From Escherichia phage slur07: a stretch of DNA of 64,000 nucleotides. Within the stretch, counting starts at the first letter, position 1; the number at the start of each line of letters is the position of its first letter. Both the position numbers and the translations under genes were made by a program. Below the pieces are notes generated by a model. The model searched no databases. It was not told the origin of the DNA and saw only the letters and a list, made by a program, of their open reading frames with translations. The stretch is taken from sequence record NC_028780.1. The stretch is one strand, 5' to 3'. This document shows, in pieces, positions 4,088 through 64,000 of the stretch.

Positions 4088-4110
4088 AGTCTCCTTCGGG
4101 AGACTTTTTT
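4088..4110 (+). terminator. rho-independent terminator
   Basis: agtctcc-ttcg-ggagact hairpin followed by T6. Confidence 0.75.
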
Positions 4111-7641: not shown

Positions 7642-7643
7642 TA

Positions 7644-7667
7644 GGGAGCCTTCGGGCTCCCTTTTTT
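7644..7667 (+). terminator. rho-independent terminator
   Basis: gggagcc-ttcg-ggctccc hairpin followed by T6. Confidence 0.75.
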
Positions 7668-20566: not shown

Positions 20567-20767
20567 ATGAATCCTGAATCTAAATTATCGCAGCGAATTG
20601 CCGAAGCTCGTCGTCAGTTCTTTGAAAATATGATAGCACAAGGTATTGATGACGAAGTTTTTCTAAACTGGTTTTGGAATCACAAATATTCAAGTTGCTC
20701 AGGAGCAATATTAATATCAGCCGCAATGATGTATGAAGGCTGGAAGGGTGCCAAAAAGTTTAGCTAA
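20567..20767 (+). CDS. hypothetical protein
   Basis: 66 aa; followed by terminator. Confidence 0.4.
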   Translation: MNPESKLSQRIAEARRQFFENMIAQGIDDEVFLNWFWNHKYSSCSGAILISAAMMYEGWKGAKKFS

Positions 20768-20784
20768 GGGCTTCGGCCCTTTTT
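20768..20784 (+). terminator. rho-independent terminator
   Basis: GGGCTTCGGCCC (UUCG tetraloop) followed by T5. Confidence 0.8.
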
Positions 20785-22959: not shown

Positions 22960-23154
22960 AAGATGAACACCCAGACTTCTGAAATAGATTATAATAAAAT
23001 TCGTTCCTCTAAAGAGGAAATGATGAGACTCTTTAAAGCGTCTCATGATAAAGCTAAAGCAGAAGGAACTATAAAATATAAGCGCATAAAATTTAAAAGT
23101 TCTAACGAGCCTCTGTATGGCGTATTATGTGGATAGGAGCTTCGGCTCCTATAT

Positions 23155-23202: not shown

Positions 23203-24405
23203 ATGAAAGTATGTATTTTTATGGCTCGAGGTCTTGAAGGTTGTGGTGTAACTAAATTTTCTCTTGAGCAACGTGATTGGTTTATTAAGAATGGTCATGA
23301 AGTAACTTTGGTTTATGCTAAAGATAAATCATTTACTCGTAATTGCGCGCATGATTATAAATCATTTTCAATTCCGGTTTTATTGGCAAAAGAATATGAT
23401 AAAACACTTAAGCTGGTAAATGATTGTGATATTCTAATTATCAATTCAGTTCCTGCTACTTCGGTTGAAGAAGACACTATTAATAACTATAAAAAAATTA
23501 TTGATAACATTAAACCTTCTGTTCGTGTTGTAGTTTATCAACATGACCATTCTTCTCTTTCTTTGCGCCGAAATTTGGGATTAGAAGAAACTGTTCGTCG
23601 AGCTGATGTTATTTTTAGCCATTCTGATAATGGTGATTTTAATAAAGTTCTGATGAAAGAATGGTATCCTGAAACAGTTTCTCTGTTTGATGATATTGAA
23701 GAAGCACCGACAGTATATAACTTTCAGCCTCCTATGGATATTGCGAAGGTTCGGTCAACCTACTGGAAAGATGTTTCTGAAATTAACATGAATATCAACC
23801 GTTGGATTGGTCGTACGACTACATGGAAAGGTTTTTATCAGATGTTTGATTTTCATGAAAAACATCTTAAACCTGCAGGACTAAGTACTATTATGGAAGG
23901 TCTGGAACGTTCTCCAGCGTTCATTCCTATTAAAGAAAAAGGAATTCCATACGAGTATTATCGTCTTCATCAAGTAGACCAAATTAAAATTGCTCCTAAT
24001 TTGCCAACGCAAATTCTTGACCGTTATGTAAATAGCGAAATGCTTGAACGTATGAGTAAATCCGGTTTTGGTTATCAGTTGAGTAAGTTGGATAAAAAAT
24101 ATCTACAACGTTCTTTAGAATATACTCATCTCGAGCTTGGTGCATGTGGAACAATTCCGGTATTTTGGAAATCTACTGGCGAAAATTTAAAATTCCGTGT
24201 TGATAATACTCCTTTGACCTCGCATGATAGCGGTATCATTTGGTTTGATGAAAATGACATGGAATCAACATTTGAACGTATTAAAGAACTGTCATCTGAC
24301 CGAACTCTTTATGACCGCGAACGCGAAAAAGCTTATGAATTTTTGTATCAGCATCAAGATTCAAGCTTCTGCTTTAAAGAACAGTTTGACATTATTACAA
24401 AATAA
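23203..24405 (+). CDS. agt: DNA alpha-glucosyltransferase
   Basis: 400 aa, same length as T4 alpha-gt; N-terminus MKVCIFMARGLEGCGVTKF...; position between 55 and 47. Confidence 0.85.
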   Translation: MKVCIFMARGLEGCGVTKFSLEQRDWFIKNGHEVTLVYAKDKSFTRNCAHDYKSFSIPVLLAKEYDKTLKLVNDCDILIINSVPATSVEEDTINNYKKIIDNIKPSVRVVVYQHDHSSLSLRRNLGLEETVRRADVIFSHSDNGDFNKVLMKEWYPETVSLFDDIEEAPTVYNFQPPMDIAKVRSTYWKDVSEINMNINRWIGRTTTWKGFYQMFDFHEKHLKPAGLSTIMEGLERSPAFIPIKEKGIPYEYYRLHQVDQIKIAPNLPTQILDRYVNSEMLERMSKSGFGYQLSKLDKKYLQRSLEYTHLELGACGTIPVFWKSTGENLKFRVDNTPLTSHDSGIIWFDENDMESTFERIKELSSDRTLYDREREKAYEFLYQHQDSSFCFKEQFDIITK

Positions 24406-24406
24406 A

Positions 24407-24420
24407 GGGCTTCGGCCCTT
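24407..24420 (+). terminator. rho-independent terminator
   Basis: GGGCTTCGGCCC hairpin followed by TTTAGCTTT. Confidence 0.6.
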
Positions 24421-24421
24421 T

Positions 24422-24446
24422 AGCTTTATACGGAGTTTGATATAAT
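24422..24446 (+). promoter_or_regulatory. putative MotA-dependent middle promoter for gene 47
   Basis: aGCTTTA 24422-24428, 12 nt, TATAAT 24441-24446. Confidence 0.55.
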
Positions 24447-29139: not shown

Positions 29140-29826
29140 ATGAAACTGTCTAAAGATACTACTGCTCTGCTTAAAAATTTCGCTACTATTAACTCCGGTA
29201 TTATGCTTAAATCCGGTCAATTTATTATGACTCGCGCAGTTAATGGTACAACTTATGCGGAAGCAAATATTTCTGACGTTATTGATTTTGATGTAGCAAT
29301 TTACGATTTGAACGGTTTTCTCGGTATTCTGTCTCTAGTTAATGATGATGCAGAAATTTCCCAGTCAGAAGATGGAAATATTAAAATTGCTGATGCTCGT
29401 TCAACAATTTTTTGGCCAGCAGCCGATCCGAGTACAGTAGTTGCTCCTAATAAACCAATTCCATTCCCGGTAGCATCTGTTGTTACTGAAATTAAAGCTG
29501 AAGACCTTCAACAACTGTTGCGTGTATCTCGTGGTCTGCAAATTGATACAATTGCTATCACGGTAAAAGAAGGTAAAATCGTAATTAACGGTTTTAATAA
29601 AGTAGAAGATTCTGCTCTGACCCGTGTTAAATATTCTTTGACTCTTGGTGATTATGATGGTGAAAATACATTTAATTTCATTATCAATATGGCAAATATG
29701 AAAATGCAACCAGGAAATTATAAACTTCTGCTCTGGGCAAAAGGTAAACAAGGTGCTGCTAAATTTGAAGGTGAACATGCGAATTATGTAGTAGCTCTTG
29801 AAGCTGATTCCACCCACGATTTTTAA
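29140..29826 (+). CDS. 45: sliding clamp gp45
   Basis: 228 aa; sequence recognised as T4 gp45 (MKLSKDTTALLKNFATINSGIMLKSGQFIMTRAVNG...). Confidence 0.95.
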   Translation: MKLSKDTTALLKNFATINSGIMLKSGQFIMTRAVNGTTYAEANISDVIDFDVAIYDLNGFLGILSLVNDDAEISQSEDGNIKIADARSTIFWPAADPSTVVAPNKPIPFPVASVVTEIKAEDLQQLLRVSRGLQIDTIAITVKEGKIVINGFNKVEDSALTRVKYSLTLGDYDGENTFNFIINMANMKMQPGNYKLLLWAKGKQGAAKFEGEHANYVVALEADSTHDF

Positions 29827-29830
29827 TAGA

Positions 29831-29845
29831 GGGCTTCGGCCCTTT
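29831..29845 (+). terminator. rho-independent terminator
   Basis: GGGCTTCGGCCC followed by TTTATAATTT. Confidence 0.6.
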
Positions 29846-29877
29846 ATAATTTACACTAAAACTTGAATGAGGAAATT

Positions 29878-32019: not shown

Positions 32020-32025
32020 AGCAAA

Positions 32026-32042
32026 GGGGCTTCGGCCCCTTA
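32026..32042 (+). terminator. rho-independent terminator
   Basis: GGGGCTTCGGCCCC hairpin followed by TTATTT; a TATAAT at 32050-32055 follows. Confidence 0.55.
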
Positions 32043-38855: not shown

Positions 38856-39192
38856 AGATGATTTAGATTTAGATCTAGAAATTATCGATGAATCCCCCTC
38901 TTCGGAGGGGGAAGAAGAAAGAAAAGAACGTCTTTTTAATGAATCTCTTAAGATAATTAAATCTGCCATGGAAAATGTTATCCAGGAGATTGTCATTAAA
39001 CTAGAAGATGGTTCTACACATATAGTGTATGTAACTAAACTGGATTGGGTTGATGGAAAGGTTGTAATGGACTTTGCTGTTCTTGACCAAGAAAGAAAAG
39101 CTGAGTTAGCTCCTCATGTAGAAAAATGTATTACAATGCAACTGCAAGATGCATTTAATAAAAGGTCAAAGAAAAAATTTAAATTCTTTTAA
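38848..39192 (+). CDS. 40: gp40-like protein (head vertex assembly chaperone position)
   Basis: about 114 aa between uvsX and 41; start uncertain (GTG 38830 or ATG 38848). Confidence 0.5.
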   Translation: MNKDDLDLDLEIIDESPSSEGEEERKERLFNESLKIIKSAMENVIQEIVIKLEDGSTHIVYVTKLDWVDGKVVMDFAVLDQERKAELAPHVEKCITMQLQDAFNKRSKKKFKFF

Positions 39193-44507: not shown

Positions 44508-44513
44508 ATTCAA

Positions 44514-44537
44514 GGACTCCTTCGGGAGTCCTTTTTT
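44514..44537 (+). terminator. rho-independent terminator
   Basis: ggactcc-ttcg-ggagtcc hairpin followed by T6. Confidence 0.8.
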
Positions 44538-54975: not shown

Positions 54976-55241
54976 AAATTATGAAATATATTAATCGTTC
55001 TATCGCTGCATTAGTATTAGCAGTGTCTTTAGCAGGATGTACTGATGCTGATAATGCAACCAAAGTTTTATCTTCAAGTGGTTTTACTAATATTGAAATC
55101 ACTGGATATAATTGGTTTGGTTGTTCTGAAAATGATTTCCAACATACTGGATTTCGTGCTATTGGACCTACTGGGCAGAAAGTAGAAGGAACAGTATGTT
55201 CTGGTCTATTCTTCAAAGATTCGACTATCCGTTTTAAATAA
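54972..55241 (+). CDS. putative lipoprotein
   Basis: 89 aa; signal peptide with lipobox LAGC (MKYINRSIAALVLAVSLAGCTD). Confidence 0.5.
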   Translation: MKIMKYINRSIAALVLAVSLAGCTDADNATKVLSSSGFTNIEITGYNWFGCSENDFQHTGFRAIGPTGQKVEGTVCSGLFFKDSTIRFK

Positions 55242-55243
55242 AA

Positions 55244-55258
55244 GGCCTTCGGGCCTTT
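55244..55258 (+). terminator. rho-independent terminator
   Basis: GGCCTTCGGGCC hairpin followed by TTTAGCTTT. Confidence 0.6.
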
Positions 55259-59585: not shown

Positions 59586-60524
59586 ATGTACAATATTAAA
59601 TGCCTGACCAAAAACGAACAAGCTGAAATTGTTAAACTGTATTCAAGTGGTAATTACACCCAACAGGAATTGGCTGATTGGCAAGGTGTATCGGTTGACA
59701 CAATCCGTCGTGTTTTGAAAAATGCTGAAGAAGCTAAACGCTCTAAAGTTACTATTAGCGGTGATATTACAATTAAAGTTAATAGCGATGCAGTTATTGC
59801 TCCAGTTGCTAAATCTGACATTATTTGGAATGCATCTAAAAAATTCATTTCAATTACTGTCGACGGTGTAACTTATAACGCAACTCCTAATACTCATTCA
59901 AACTTCCAGGAAATTCTTAATCTGCTCGTAGCAGATAAGTTAGAAGAAGCAGCACAAAAAATTAATGTTCGTCGCGCTGTTGAAAAATATATTTCCGGCG
60001 ATGTTCGAATTGAAGGTGGAAGCTTGTTCTATCAAAATATCGAATTGCGGTCTGGTTTGGTTGATCGTATTCTTGACTCGATGGAAAAAGGCGAAAACTT
60101 TGAATTTTATTTTCCGTTCTTGGAAAATCTGTTGGAAAACCCAAGCCAAAAAGCTGTATCTCGACTCTTTGATTTCTTGGTAGCAAACGATATTGAAATT
60201 ACAGAAGATGGTTACTTCTATGCTTGGAAAGTAGTTCGTGACAACTACTTTGACTGTCACTCAAACACCTTTGATAACAGTCCTGGTAAAGTAGTTAAAA
60301 TGCCGCGTACTCGTGTGAATGACGATGATACACAAACTTGTTCTCGTGGTCTGCATGTGTGTTCTAAATCTTATATTCGTCACTTTGGCAGTTCAACCAG
60401 CCGAGTTGTAAAAGTTAAAGTACATCCACGTGATGTAGTATCAATTCCGATTGATTACAACGATGCTAAAATGCGTACCTGCCAATACGAAGTAGTTGAA
60501 GACGTTACTGAACAATTTAAATAA
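59586..60524 (+). CDS. rIIB: rIIB protein
   Basis: 312 aa (T4 rIIB length); N-terminal HTH-like segment (QQELADWQGVSVDTIRRVLK). Confidence 0.8.
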   Translation: MYNIKCLTKNEQAEIVKLYSSGNYTQQELADWQGVSVDTIRRVLKNAEEAKRSKVTISGDITIKVNSDAVIAPVAKSDIIWNASKKFISITVDGVTYNATPNTHSNFQEILNLLVADKLEEAAQKINVRRAVEKYISGDVRIEGGSLFYQNIELRSGLVDRILDSMEKGENFEFYFPFLENLLENPSQKAVSRLFDFLVANDIEITEDGYFYAWKVVRDNYFDCHSNTFDNSPGKVVKMPRTRVNDDDTQTCSRGLHVCSKSYIRHFGSSTSRVVKVKVHPRDVVSIPIDYNDAKMRTCQYEVVEDVTEQFK

Positions 60525-60525
60525 G

Positions 60526-60540
60526 GGCTTCGGCCCTTAT
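60526..60540 (+). terminator. rho-independent terminator
   Basis: GGGCTTCGGCCC hairpin followed by TTAT. Confidence 0.55.
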
Positions 60541-60556
60541 CATATTAAGGAAAATT

Positions 60557-60751
60557 ATGTTAGGTTATCAAGCACGAGTAAAAGAAGAATACGATCAATT
60601 AATGCTCAAAATTAATGCACTGAGCAAATTTTTAGAAAGCACAAAGTTTCTAACGGTTAGTGCAGTTGAGCAAGAACTGCTGCTTTCACAGTTCATCTCA
60701 ATGAAATCTTATGCTGAGTGTCTAGAGAAAAGAATCGCACAATTCAAATAA
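60557..60751 (+). CDS. hypothetical protein
   Basis: 64 aa ORF flanked by two terminator hairpins. Confidence 0.4.
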   Translation: MLGYQARVKEEYDQLMLKINALSKFLESTKFLTVSAVEQELLLSQFISMKSYAECLEKRIAQFK

Positions 60752-60756
60752 AATAA

Positions 60757-60777
60757 GGGCTTCGGCCCTTTTGTTTT
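60757..60777 (+). terminator. rho-independent terminator
   Basis: GGGCTTCGGCCC hairpin followed by TTTTGTTTT. Confidence 0.75.
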
Positions 60778-60814
60778 AAGAGAAATTATGATTCCGACAT
60801 AAAGGAAAGTTTAA

Positions 60815-61372
60815 ATGCAGAAAACGAATCCGGGTTTACAGAGACTATTTCAGATTCCGACATTTACCCTATCGAACAGTGACTTGACTAGTGAAATGAA
60901 GGTCAAAATTGCTGATACAGCAAGATACTCTTTAAAACAAAACCCGAACCAGGATAAAGCAGAAGTTATCGAAAGATGCCGTATCGCTGTGTACGCAGAG
61001 TTTTTTGTGGCAGATTGGCTAAGCGGATATGTCAATAAAGGCCAAGAAGATGTCGATGATCCGTACACATATGCATGGGATGTTTTAGCACATCCAAAAT
61101 ACTGTGGGCTCCGTGTAGAAGTTAAGACACATCAAACTGACTCGCGTTGGATTTCGGTAACAACGGGATGCAGCGGAGAGTATCCATATGGTTCTGGAAT
61201 AAATCTAGGGCCCATTCTAAATCATCAAGTCGCGGACTGTATAATTATATTCAACACTAAAGAAATTCATCCAGGTGTCATCCAGTACACTCCGAAGTTC
61301 ATCGGTGACAGAGAAGACCTTCGTAAGGTTGTAAGAAAAAGCAACTACAACGGATGGTATCTTTCTATTTAA
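60815..61372 (+). CDS. denB: DenB-like endonuclease (endonuclease IV position)
   Basis: 185 aa (T4 DenB length) directly after rIIB. Confidence 0.5.
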   Translation: MQKTNPGLQRLFQIPTFTLSNSDLTSEMKVKIADTARYSLKQNPNQDKAEVIERCRIAVYAEFFVADWLSGYVNKGQEDVDDPYTYAWDVLAHPKYCGLRVEVKTHQTDSRWISVTTGCSGEYPYGSGINLGPILNHQVADCIIIFNTKEIHPGVIQYTPKFIGDREDLRKVVRKSNYNGWYLSI

Positions 61373-61389
61373 AAAAATTTCATAAAACA

Positions 61390-61449
61390 GTTTACATACC
61401 ACAAGGACCGTGGTACTATACAACTATCAGCTACGGAGGAGTAAAAATG
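61390..61449 (+). repeat. PeSL-like early promoter/leader cassette (copy 6)
   Basis: GTTTAC 61390-61395, TACTAT 61414-61419, leader ..ctatacaactatcagctacggaggagtaaaaATG (ATG 61447). Confidence 0.75.
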
Positions 61450-61710
61450 AAATTTAAATTTTATTACGCTAAACATAAAATTACCGGTGAATTTATTGCA
61501 TTTACGACTTCAACTACAGGTGAAGGAGATATTTTTACTGCAGTATTTTTATCAAAATGGGAATCAGATCAACCTTACTTATCATCACGTGAAGATCTCC
61601 AACGATTAGTTAATGGAGAATATAATGATTCATGGTCATATTTAGTCCATGATTGTGTTAAAAAGGCAATAAAACAAAAACACCTGGAAATCGTTGAGAT
61701 TGAACTATGA
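61447..61710 (+). CDS. hypothetical protein
   Basis: 87 aa from ATG 61447; track start 61354 translates the promoter. Confidence 0.45.
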   Translation: MKFKFYYAKHKITGEFIAFTTSTTGEGDIFTAVFLSKWESDQPYLSSREDLQRLVNGEYNDSWSYLVHDCVKKAIKQKHLEIVEIEL

Positions 61711-61895
61711 GTTCATTATGGTGGTGTTTTGTTTGGTTAATTAGTATTCCAGTAATTTGTTTAACATTTACTTTTGTGATGAGGTTATTATGAAAATTTT
61801 GAATTCTGTACTTATTGCGTGTGCATGGTTGGTTGCACAAGTTTCGGCAGTAGTGATTGGTATTCACATTTATTACGAATATTTTTAAAAAAGTT

Positions 61896-61956
61896 GTTTA
61901 CAAGACTGTTCTTCCGTGGTACTATTACCCTATCAACTACGGAGGAACAGAAAATG
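61896..61956 (+). repeat. PeSL-like early promoter/leader cassette (copy 7)
   Basis: GTTTAC 61896-61901, TACTAT 61920-61925; CTGTTCTTCC 61906-61915 pairs (9/10) with GGAGGAACAG 61941-61950 sequestering the SD; ATG 61954. Confidence 0.75.
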
Positions 61957-62067
61957 AAAAAGATTGTTAAAGCTATATGGAATGTAGTTATAATACTAAT
62001 AGTTTTGAGTATATTCCCAATCGTTTTAATGATTGATGTATTAAACGTTTACTTTGGATTTATGTGA
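61954..62067 (+). CDS. small membrane peptide
   Basis: 37 aa hydrophobic ORF (MKKIVKAIWNVVIILIVLSIFPIVLMI...) from cassette ATG. Confidence 0.4.
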   Translation: MKKIVKAIWNVVIILIVLSIFPIVLMIDVLNVYFGFM

Positions 62068-62074
62068 GGAAAAT

Positions 62075-62272
62075 ATGAAGCGTAAACGCAGTGCTTTTAC
62101 ATTTATTGAATGGTTTTTCGATAATATTTTTCCGGCTTTATTCATTTTCATGCTGATTTTTGCCTTGGGTTCAGTTGTAGTTGGAATCTATTTGATGACA
62201 GTAGTCGGAATTGATATTCATCAAAATGGTTTAAAATCTGTTGTTGAAACAATTTGGAATGGTGTAAAATGA
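62075..62272 (+). CDS. small membrane protein
   Basis: 65 aa from ATG 62075 (TGAGGAAAATATG); hydrophobic helices. Confidence 0.4.
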   Translation: MKRKRSAFTFIEWFFDNIFPALFIFMLIFALGSVVVGIYLMTVVGIDIHQNGLKSVVETIWNGVK

Positions 62273-62387
62273 TGAATTTGCTGAGCGGTTGGTTTTATAT
62301 TCTTATGTTTTACATTGGTGCAAATTTCCCATATTGGATGGGATGGTCAACAACTGCATTTGGATTTTATACTCCTTGAGGTGAATT

Positions 62388-62603
62388 ATGAAAAGCTTTA
62401 AAGATGTAAAAGTTAGTGAAATTTTTTGTTTAGATAATGGTGATCAGTTAATTCGTATTTCACCTCTTAAGAGCACTAGCGAGAAAATGACAGTTAATGC
62501 TACTTTAGCAAACAATAGTAATGAACGTTTCTGTATTGAAAATGATACTGAAACTTATACCGTAGAAGAGTTTTGGGAGTTGAGCGTCGACTGCGACGAT
62601 TAA
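62388..62603 (+). CDS. hypothetical protein
   Basis: 71 aa ORF. Confidence 0.4.
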   Translation: MKSFKDVKVSEIFCLDNGDQLIRISPLKSTSEKMTVNATLANNSNERFCIENDTETYTVEEFWELSVDCDD

Positions 62604-62662
62604 TTTAATGGCTGTGTGTATTCATGCGGCCTTGGAGTAGAAAATAATTAGAGGAAATTAAT

Positions 62663-63121
62663 ATGAAATATATGACTGTTACTGATCTGAACAACGCAGG
62701 CGCTACTGTTATTGGTACAATCAAGGGTGGTGAATGGTTTTTGGGAACTCCGCATAAAGATATTTTATCTAAACCTGGATTTTACTTTTTAGTGTGTAAA
62801 TTAGATGGTCGTCCATTTAGTAATCCGTGCGTGTCTGCGCGATTTTATGTAGGTAATCAGCGTTCTAAGCAAGGATTCAGTGCGGTTCTAAGTCATATTC
62901 GTCAGCGTCGGTCTCAGCTTGCGCGTACTATTGCAAATAACAATGTTCCATACACAGTATTTTATCTGCCTGCTTCTAAGATGAAACCTCTGACGACGGG
63001 ATTTGGTAAAGGTCAGTTAGCTTTGGCGTTTACTCGTAATCATCATTCTGAGTATCAAACACTTGAAGAAATGAACCGTATGTTGGCTGATAACTTTAAA
63101 TTTGTTTTGCAGGCATATTAA
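62663..63121 (+). CDS. ndd: nucleoid disruption protein Ndd
   Basis: 152 aa; sequence recognised as T4 Ndd-like ([33 protein letters not shown]...). Confidence 0.75.
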
Positions 63122-63201
63122 TGAGTAATTTCCATAACGAACATGTGATGCAGTTCTATCGTAACAATCTTAAAACTAAAGGCGTCTTCGGACGCCAGTG
63201 A
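63121..63201 (+). CDS. stp: Stp peptide (activator of host anticodon nuclease PrrC)
   Basis: 26 aa [29 protein letters not shown], recognised as the T4 Stp peptide; TAATG-coupled to ndd; not in track. Confidence 0.65.
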
Positions 63202-63208
63202 GGAAAAT

Positions 63209-63364
63209 ATGAAACTTGTTCACGGTATAGCCTTTTTCTGTTGGTTCTTTTTATGCATCGGAACAGTAATAACTGGAGAAACTTCAGTATTTTTGCAAGC
63301 ATCAGCTCAGGGCGTATTAGCGATTTTATCATTATTCGCGTACATTGGTTCTAAAAATAGTTGA
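63209..63364 (+). CDS. ac: small membrane protein (ac-like, acridine sensitivity position)
   Basis: 51 aa hydrophobic ORF (T4 Ac length) after stp; not in track. Confidence 0.5.
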   Translation: MKLVHGIAFFCWFFLCIGTVITGETSVFLQASAQGVLAILSLFAYIGSKNS

Positions 63365-63374
63365 GGAGAATATT

Positions 63375-63533
63375 ATGAATATTGCAAAATTATTAGGAGT
63401 TATTTCATTTATTTGTTGGATAGTAGCATGTGTTTTAACTATCTGTATTGATGCCAGCAGTGTGTTTTCGCAAGCTTTAGCTCAGGGTATGTGTGCATAT
63501 TTAACATTTGTATTGTTATCTACTAATGATTAA
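63375..63533 (+). CDS. small membrane protein, paralog of ac-like ORF
   Basis: 52 aa from ATG 63375; shares ..SVF.QA.AQG.. core with 63209..63364. Confidence 0.4.
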   Translation: MNIAKLLGVISFICWIVACVLTICIDASSVFSQALAQGMCAYLTFVLLSTND

Positions 63534-63666
63534 GAAAATCTTGGGCTATTCATTAGCCCTTGCTATTTTATTGATAGCGTTATATTACGGAATAATGTTC
63601 GGATTAATTCAAGTCGTGCTTTTCATTTCTGATGTTATTATGGCACTACATTCACTAGTATGGTAA
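63526..63666 (+). CDS. small membrane protein
   Basis: 46 aa hydrophobic ORF not in track. Confidence 0.3.
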   Translation: MIKKILGYSLALAILLIALYYGIMFGLIQVVLFISDVIMALHSLVW

Positions 63667-63670
63667 ATTT

Positions 63671-64000
63671 ATGCAACTGAATAATCGCGATTTAAAAAGT
63701 ATCATTGATAATGAAGCATTGGCTTATGCTATGTACACGGTTGAAAATCGTGCTATCCCAAATATGATTGATGGATTTAAGCCAGTTCAACGATTTGTTA
63801 TTGCTCGAGCTCTTGATTTGGCACGAGGAAATAAAGATAAGTTTCACAAACTCGCTTCTATTGCAGGTGGTGTAGCGGACCTTGGATATCATCATGGCGA
63901 AAACTCTGCACAAGACGCAGGCGCTTTGATGGCTAATACTTGGAATAATAACTTTCCTTTGTTAGATGGTCAAGGAAACTTCGGTTCTCGTACTGTCCAA
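63671..64000 (+). CDS. 52: DNA topoisomerase II medium subunit gp52 (GyrA-like), 5' part only
   Basis: N-terminal 110 codons; GyrA-like motifs (AYAMYTVENRAIPNMIDGFKPVQR, GQGNFGS); runs off window end. Confidence 0.85.
   Translation, partial: MQLNNRDLKSIIDNEALAYAMYTVENRAIPNMIDGFKPVQRFVIARALDLARGNKDKFHKLASIAGGVADLGYHHGENSAQDAGALMANTWNNNFPLLDGQGNFGSRTVQ

Follow-up and report, generated by a model that had tools for sequence, protein, structure and literature searches.

We examined the short open reading frames that follow ndd near the 3' end of the window (the 64,000-nt stretch of Escherichia phage slur07, NC_028780.1, analysed here) in order to understand which genes they represent and what role, if any, the hairpin in the 3' end of the first of them plays. 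Over its last 1.4 kb, the window shares 95-99% identity with several hundred genomes of Tequatrovirus (T4-like) phages, the best match being vB_EcoM_R5505 (98.0%); the region has matches in 592 phage records, and in 418 of these the identity is 95-99%. The 3' end of the window is a Tequatrovirus early operon, ndd > stp > ac2 > ac > 52.1 > gene 52, and the + strand here is the counterpart of the T4 strand that carries the early genes. Specifically, the T4 gene order is ndd-stp-ac-52.1-52 (NC_000866 165209-166040), and the stp of the window sits likewise, 3' of ndd and 5' of ac, 52.1 and gene 52. All of stp, ac and 52.1 are well-known T4 genes, already annotated in T4 and its relatives; the exception is an extra ac paralogue, here called ac2. 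The locus is very probably explained as a T4-type ndd-stp-ac2-ac-52.1-52 unit in the two-copy ac form, with a C(UUCG)G hairpin that acts on the sense RNA.

Within such a unit, the locus would form the distal part of an early or delayed-early polycistronic transcript, with its cistrons chained via the tight junctions usual in T4 (TAATG, TGA inside GAGGA, and ATGATTAA). The TAA stop of ndd and the ATG of stp have one base in common at 63121, which bears out the TAATG coupling described in the initial annotation. At both the stp/ac2 and the ac2/ac boundary, the TGA stop is embedded in GAGGA, 5 nt upstream of the ATG. The ac and 52.1 frames overlap by 8 nt (ATGATTAA), and a 4-nt gap separates 52.1 from gene 52.

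Features of the ndd-52 interval at the 3' end of the window, with the basis of each assignment.
Feature	Position	Strand	Basis or remark
ndd, nucleoid disruption protein, 152 aa	62663..63121	+	Pfam PF06591 316 bits; ORF list; T4 synteny
stp, 26 aa	63121..63201	+	26/26 vs T4 Stp; PF08133 75.3 bits; phrog_6763
C(UUCG)G hairpin GGCGUC-UUCG-GACGCC, stp codons 21-26	63181..63196	+	dG -10.0 kcal/mol
Stop-in-SD junction TGAGGAAAATATGAA: stp stop, GAGGA Shine-Dalgarno, ac2 start	63199..63213	+	Sequence; left repeat bounding the ac2 indel
ac2, 51-aa two-helix membrane protein	63209..63364	+	phrog_2501 E=6e-26; Ac paralogue, missing from T4
Second stop-in-SD junction TGAGGAGAATATTATGAA: ac2 stop, GAGGAG Shine-Dalgarno, ac start	63362..63379	+	Right repeat of the indel
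ac, 52-aa T4 Ac orthologue (acridine sensitivity, membrane protein)	63375..63533	+	phrog_2501; T4 Ac plus one Thr
52.1, 46-aa membrane protein	63526..63666	+	Pfam DUF7396 78.3 bits, full length; 43/46 vs T4 gp52.1
gene 52, 5' part (topoisomerase II medium subunit), truncated by the window end	63671..64000	+	Synteny; annotation in T4 and relatives

Judged by its sequence, the 26-residue peptide encoded directly after ndd is Stp. It aligns with T4 Stp (NP_049878) without a mismatch, including all 18 N-proximal residues, and its residues 1-26 match profile positions 1-26 of PF08133 ('anticodon nuclease activator', Nuclease_act) well above the cut-off of 25 bits; it also matches phrog_6763 (E=4e-21). 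Together with the T4 synteny, these matches uphold the earlier recognition of this ORF as stp. The gene shares with T4 stp the encoded peptide, the TAATG overlap with ndd, the 3' hairpin and the TGAGGAAAATATG junction, and differs from it in two synonymous DNA changes only and in its downstream neighbour, which is ac in T4 vs ac2 in the window. Since the peptide is identical to that of T4, the window adds nothing new on Stp itself.

Stp is both necessary and sufficient for activation of ACNase, and it alleviates restriction by the type IC enzymes EcoprrI and EcoR124I (PMC3014915). Inhibition of EcoprrI/EcoR124I by Stp activates PrrC, which cuts tRNA-Lys, and the cut tRNA is repaired by T4 Pnk and Rnl1 (PMC3014915). 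The N-proximal 18 residues of Stp are conserved and critical, with loss-of-function mutations clustering there, while the C-terminal part is polymorphic and loss of the 8 C-terminal codons costs little activity (PMC3014915). Taking its activity from the identical T4 peptide, the Stp of the window would bind and inhibit type IC enzymes (EcoprrI, EcoR124I), and in prr+ hosts this inhibition would unmask the PrrC tRNA-Lys anticodon nuclease. Stp is a classical anti-restriction factor that serves the abortive-infection nuclease of the host (PrrC) as an alarm signal, and recognising stp matters for the annotation of defence and counter-defence; in most public T4-like genomes, the 81-nt gene goes unannotated. 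Specifically, ndd was the sole feature under the match in most of the rows sampled from public records, and the records of R5505 and Aplg8 both carry stp without annotation.

Using tblastn, we found Stp in 612 phage records. Homologues outside the T-even phages include those of Kagunavirus (Guernseyvirinae) and of Drexlerviridae (T1-like). The peptides scanned from Kagunavirus and Nouzillyvirus (P817) exceed the Pfam gathering score, while Tunavirus-type peptides are recognised by the conserved core and tblastn only. The siphophage peptides share the core MS[NS][FW]HNEH[VI]MQ[FL]YR and have differing tails; their genes are unannotated, and each is coupled to the following cistron through ATGA. 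In the two Kagunavirus records read upstream of stp, a terminator and a promoter-like TTGACT-17-TATTAT precede the gene. A locus search based on Ndd returned 5 loci, and degenerate DNA patterns found more. The stp core pattern had 0 matches in 185,579 bacterial and archaeal genomes, which gives no evidence for prophage or host copies. Our literature search found no mention of siphophage Stp-family peptides, and their presence in T1-like and Kagunavirus phages is a modestly new by-product of this analysis. Virulent siphophages with Stp-family peptides presumably have unmodified DNA. Their Stp peptides agree with the old proposal that anti-restriction is the primary job of Stp.

Three hydrophobic mini-proteins of 51, 52 and 46 residues follow stp, all of them present as previously described (GRAVY 1.17, 1.42 and 1.80, respectively). 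Two of the three had been called paralogues, and the 51-aa and 52-aa proteins do align with 18 of 40 residues identical (45%, E=2e-10), each matching phrog_2501 over its full length with E<1e-24 (E=3.7e-25 for ac). Given its 45% identity to Ac and their shared PHROG, we named the 51-aa ORF ac2; on these sequence comparisons, the two proteins are paralogues of the Ac (acridine sensitivity) family. Alignment with T4 Ac (NP_049877, 51 aa) shows that the 52-aa ORF is identical to it save for one inserted Thr. The 46-aa ORF is identical to T4 gp52.1 (NP_049876) at 43 of 46 positions, counted from the sequences, and it matches PF24129 (DUF7396) with residues 1-46 of 46 at 78.3 bits vs a cut-off of 27; it adjoins gene 52. 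The initial annotation had missed the identity of the 52-aa ORF with T4 ac and of the 46-aa ORF with T4 gene 52.1, as well as the C(UUCG)G class of the hairpin. Both T4 genes have orthologues in the window, with the same ATGATTAA overlap, and the difference from T4 lies in the added upstream paralogue ac2.

In RB51, RB32 and wV7, ac2 is the sole ac-type gene. Copies of ac2 with at least 90% identity occur in 47 phage records and copies with 60-90% identity in 46, and in several GenBank records the gene is already labelled 'acridine resistance'. Ac and Ac2 contain two hydrophobic segments each (hydropathy windows >1.6 at both ends) and are predicted to be small two-helix inner-membrane proteins; Ac would make infected cells accumulate acridines, as known for T4 ac, and gp52.1 would be the third small membrane protein of the locus. 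The T4 ac gene has been shown to render infected cells acridine-sensitive (bioRxiv 10.1101/2025.06.30.662393; PMC13250531). The 2025 preprint proposes that Ac blocks AcrAB-TolC, and the ac paralogue goes unmentioned in it (bioRxiv 10.1101/2025.06.30.662393). We also considered whether the ORFs after stp are chance open frames in AT-rich DNA and not genes. In favour of this, their length is 46-52 aa, which is short, and some records lack an annotation for one or more of them. However, every one of them has a correctly spaced Shine-Dalgarno sequence and a full-length match to a family profile (phrog_2501 or, at 78 bits, DUF7396), the ORFs are conserved across genera, and T4 ac is genetically defined, which leaves the chance-frame reading with a negligible probability.

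The GGCGTC-TTCG-GACGCC hairpin noticed earlier is real, although it does not form the last 16 nt of stp as had been stated but ends 5 nt before the end of the gene. The stem covers stp codons 21-25 and the first base of codon 26, and is followed by AG and TGA (5 nt), so that the stop codon lies 2 nt on. Its reported position directly before the next Shine-Dalgarno sequence holds: the GAGGA of ac2 (63200-63204) overlaps the TGA stop of stp. The hairpin alone has a folding energy of -10.0 kcal/mol, and the fold in its 81-nt context has z=-2.3. A count of UUCG-loop hairpins with stems of 6 bp or more across the window gave 13 for the + strand and 0 for the - strand, vs a chance expectation of 0.76 on average and 4 at maximum in 300 runs of first-order Markov simulations; UUCG is the commonest tetraloop among all 256. 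These hairpins are mostly intergenic, and several precede promoter-like sequences. The one at 60521-60540 resembles the stp hairpin in preceding a Shine-Dalgarno sequence and an ATG. Just two of the 13 lie within coding sequence, namely the stp hairpin and the one at 38893-38912 (in the ORF after uvsX).

C(UUCG)G hairpins of T4 mRNA were reportedly described by Tuerk et al. in 1988. The UUCG tetraloop was first found in T4 mRNA (PMC4371310). The stp hairpin belongs to this classical T4 C(UUCG)G class, with which it shares a UUCG loop closed by C-G, a G+C-rich stem of 6 bp, the sense orientation, and a site at a cistron boundary immediately 5' of a Shine-Dalgarno sequence; it differs in being formally coding and not intercistronic, though functionally it is at a cistron boundary. 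In 9 distinct Tevenvirinae stp 3' ends (Tequatro-, Dhaka- and Gapriverviruses), the stem is 100% paired. Its three changes are one-sided (G-C to G.U, C-G to U.G, and U-A to U.G), and the loop changes once, to UUUG. No compensatory double changes occur in the stem among these 9 sequences, and shuffles were uninformative; structural selection is thus compatible with the data but unproven. In the siphophage Stp homologues, the GVFG residues are present but are specified by other codons, and the hairpin is missing (dG >= -3.7 kcal/mol), indicating that the peptide does not force the structure. T6- and FN-type phages are without the hairpin, which is therefore dispensable. These comparisons together show that the hairpin is a real, T-even-specific feature, and it is probably selected at the RNA level.

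The stp hairpin would act at the RNA level on the sense transcript. Its role might be that of a barrier to exonucleolytic or 5'-end-dependent decay, or of a folding insulator at the stp/ac2 boundary, a tentative assignment to which we give somewhat less than an even chance; a decay or processing barrier or a folding insulator nevertheless appears the most likely role when set against termination. A rho-independent terminator that ends the ndd-stp transcript is suggested by the R5505 record, in which the corresponding position is annotated 'putative transcriptional terminator, ARNOLD, -10.30', and 5 of the 12 other UUCG hairpins of the window precede T-runs and look like terminators. At stp, however, the stem is followed by AGUGAGGAAAAUAUG, with no U-tract, and the terminator scan gave no + strand call, indicating that the hairpin is not a sense-strand terminator. 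Four co-oriented, tightly coupled cistrons lie directly downstream with no promoter-like site ahead of ac2, and a sense terminator is accordingly very unlikely. The most plausible source of the R5505 annotation is the T-rich sequence on the other strand. There, the stem is followed by TTTAGTTTTA, and a consensus scan calls a terminator-like structure, which could end antisense (late, clockwise) read-through. However, the antisense loop is CGAA and so is without the stabilising UUCG, no - strand genes are nearby, and the + strand orientation of all 13 strong UUCG hairpins points to a function on the sense strand; we regard an antisense terminator as even less probable than a sense one.

The hairpin could also be a functionless by-product of the G-V-F-G-R codons, kept through the close kinship of the phages compared. 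This fits the lack of compensatory changes, the loss of the hairpin without obvious harm in T6- and FN-type phages, and the 95-99% identity of the whole region in most records. Against it, ~0.006 hairpins of this kind would be expected by chance in these 546 nt (scaled from the Markov simulations), all 4 substitutions in the 16 nt among Tequatro-, Dhaka- and Gapriverviruses keep the pairing or fall in the loop, siphophage homologues use other codons for the same residues, and the strand-biased 17-fold excess argues for selection on the class as a whole. On balance, we consider a mere by-product unlikely, though it deserves more weight than termination on either strand.

Other candidate roles were rejected. 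Using partition-function folding of 63061-63300, in which the native sequence was compared with three synonymous recodings of the hairpin, we found no support for a role in insulating the Shine-Dalgarno sequence: the hairpin gives no gain in predicted accessibility of the SD or AUG (mean unpaired probability 0.40 for native vs 0.41-0.51 for recoded). A bypass or frameshift signal like that of gene 60 does not fit either, as the stem contains UUC-GGA by coincidence, its GGA has no stop after it, a slippery heptamer is absent, and no spacer precedes the stem. The stp/ac2 junction, with GAGGAA and without GGAG, is not a RegB site; GGAG is present in the ac2/ac junction (TGAGGAGAATATTATGAA). A scan of 60000-64000 with the covariance models of Rfam 15 returned as its sole match a chance-level TarB (22.8 bits vs a gathering score of 80, E=0.41).

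We also examined the structural variation of the locus by aligning the stp-to-52.1 interval plus further loci, for which 18 records were fetched out of ~600 Tequatrovirus. The result is a clear catalogue of four variants of the stp-ac locus. T4 and the majority have stp-ac-52.1 (form A); this window, Aplg8 and R5505 have stp-ac2-ac-52.1 (form B); RB51, wV7, RPN226 and Shfl2 have stp-ac2-52.1 (form C); and T6 and FN have a chimeric 28-aa Stp with a different tail, followed by ac (form D). For form B, 49 of 795 records, including PST, cover at least 80% of 63060-63680. In Dhaka- and Gapriverviruses, the same slot is occupied either by an ac2-like gene or by the gene of an unrelated membrane protein of 53-55 aa (phrog_9347), and the start of the slot gene is always at +88 from the stp ATG. 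Alignment with T4 shows that the difference between forms A and B is an indel that ends exactly at the junction repeats TGAGGAAAATATGAA and TGAGGAGAATATTATGAA. Every Tevenvirinae stp locus with the hairpin has the TGAGGAAAATATGAA junction unchanged. The window contains 25 instances of TGAGG[A/G]-N(3-9)-ATG and 4 of the exact 13-mer; the motif is thus generic, and the invariance of the junction is not special to the stp locus. The window would represent the two-copy (ac2 and ac) form of a Tequatrovirus locus that may vary via indels between repeated stop-SD-ATG junctions.

Form D is collinear with form B. Nucleotides 1-55 of T6 stp are identical to window 63121-63175 (55/55), and nucleotides 70-130 match window 63347-63407, which spans the ac2 tail, the junction and the ac start, at 58 of 61 positions (60 of 61 in FN). 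The 14-nt linker of T6 in between matches 63281-63293, inside ac2, at 11 of 13 positions. These matches suggest that a deletion joined stp codons 1-18 to what was left of ac2 and so gave rise to the T6-type Stp. Such an origin agrees with the published finding that the N-proximal 18 residues are conserved and critical and the tail polymorphic and largely dispensable (PMC3014915). Proof of where the T6 tail came from would be an ac2 allele with ...FGILG[FS]KNS at its end; the alleles fetched included none, and the case for the fusion therefore depends on the collinear matches in the DNA. That the tail of T6-type Stp probably arose by deletion is a modestly new point.

It is conceivable, though we hold it as a tentative reading short of even odds, that the two-copy form is ancestral, that the other Tequatrovirus forms arose by deletions between stop-in-SD junctions, and that Stp is a mobile module with a variable tail. 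If so, the T4 form would stem from a loss of ac2 exactly between TGAGGAAAATATGAA and TGAGGAGAATATTATGAA, and the T6/FN fusion would both have made the 'polymorphic' C-terminus of Stp and have deleted the hairpin. Taken with the siphophage homologues, an ancestral two-copy form would make Stp a mobile anti-type-I-restriction module of 14-18 residues whose tail is free to vary, and the hairpin a T-even-specific mRNA feature outside Stp function.

The arrangement resembles the promoter/stem-loop (PeSL) cassettes of T4-type phages (PMC2839356, PMC4122927), in that a short conserved non-protein motif edges small-gene indels in a hyperplastic region, and the ndd.x genes, neighbours of this locus, are a published PeSL example (PMC2839356, PMC4122927). 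It differs from them in that the stp hairpin comes without an early promoter, with nothing promoter-like between 63196 and 63209 or just after, and in that the end-points of the indel are repeated stop-SD-ATG junctions and not a promoter-terminator unit.

Virulent E. coli siphophages, namely Kagunavirus and T1-like Drexlerviridae, encode unannotated Stp-family peptides of 25-30 aa. These peptides keep the core MS[NS][FW]HNEH[VI]MQ[FL]YR, while their tails vary. The scanned Kagunavirus and P817 Stp-like peptides pass the Pfam PF08133 cut-off; for those of the Tunavirus type, the assignment comes from the core pattern plus tblastn alone. The UUCG hairpin is present in none of these siphophage stp-like loci, and a search of 185k bacterial genomes with a core pattern of the Stp family found no copy. 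The siphophage peptides fit a view of Stp as primarily an anti-type-I-restriction peptide. One metagenomic contig that resembles Kagunavirus has its stp-like ORF joined in frame with the gene after it. The resulting product is 74 aa long and may reflect either a frameshift variant or an error in sequencing.

The stp-like ORF of P817 has two genes directly upstream. One codes for a stand-alone phosphatase of the HAD family, polynucleotide kinase-phosphatase type (PF25109, 66 bits); the other codes for a P-loop dNMP-kinase-like protein (phrog_139). Their position beside the stp-like ORF is reminiscent of the T4 Stp/Pnk counter-defence pairing.

Coordinates of the features discussed (L numbers are comparison loci from other phages or metagenomic contigs, with positions counted within each locus)
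Feature	Locus	Position	Source or remark
stp-like ORF	L010	2501-2578	Kagunavirus OZ035783
stp-like ORF	L032	1501-1578	MH051334
stp-like ORF	L033	~1483-1575	P817, Drexlerviridae
stp-like ORF	L034		BEK6
stp-like ORF	L038	701-781	LHE71, Tunavirus
stp-like ORFs	L022-L028, L042-L058		IMG/VR
stp-like fusion ORF	L022	226-450	metagenomic contig
Two upstream genes	L033	125-742, 792-1409	P817
T6-type stp	L035	701-787	T6; compared with window 63121-63407
T6-type stp	L036	701-787	FN; compared with window 63121-63407
GGAG in ac Shine-Dalgarno	window	63365-63368	
Hairpin in coding sequence	window	38893-38912	8 bp
Intergenic UUCG hairpins, sense strand	window	4088-4105, 7643-7662, 20766-20781, 23133-23152, 24403-24422, 29826-29847, 32024-32041, 44512-44533, 55241-55258, 60521-60540, 60755-60770	
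Extra ndd/stp ORF	L012	661-~830	UPEC07
Extra ndd/stp ORF	L040	197-370	Shfl2
Extra ndd/stp ORF	L016, L030		
Very small hydrophobic ORFs	window	61800-62400	upstream of ndd.1

Stp of T6 and FN is 28 aa long and ends in NFGILG[FS]KNS. Its gene is collinear with the window as stp nt 1-55, an ac2 fragment, and the ac2 3' end/ac junction, an arrangement that looks like an stp::ac2 deletion fusion in which the hairpin was removed.

The Shine-Dalgarno of ac in the window is GAGGAG and hence includes GGAG, the motif targeted by the T4 RegB endoribonuclease, whereas T4, which lacks ac2, has GAGGAA and no GGAG. Because of this sequence difference, ac regulation may differ among locus forms.

Besides the stp hairpin, a second C(UUCG)G hairpin embedded in coding sequence, UCCCCCUC-UUCG-GAGGGGGA, lies close to the 5' end of a 120-aa ORF after uvsX, probably gene 40. 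Eleven more UUCG hairpins are intergenic on the sense strand. Some of these precede T-runs and look like terminators, and some precede a promoter-like GCTTTAT...TATAAT and look like PeSLs; a Shine-Dalgarno and ATG directly 3' are found at one of the 11, the hairpin starting at 60521.

Upstream of ndd.1, the window carries a series of very small hydrophobic ORFs, the counterparts of T4 ndd.2-ndd.6, a region published as hyperplastic, with genes swapped via PeSL (PMC4122927). Some T-even phages have an extra hydrophobic ORF of ~57 aa between ndd and stp, whose product starts MKALFVMGYL... or MRHFFAMGYL... and whose stop overlaps the stp ATG (ATGA).
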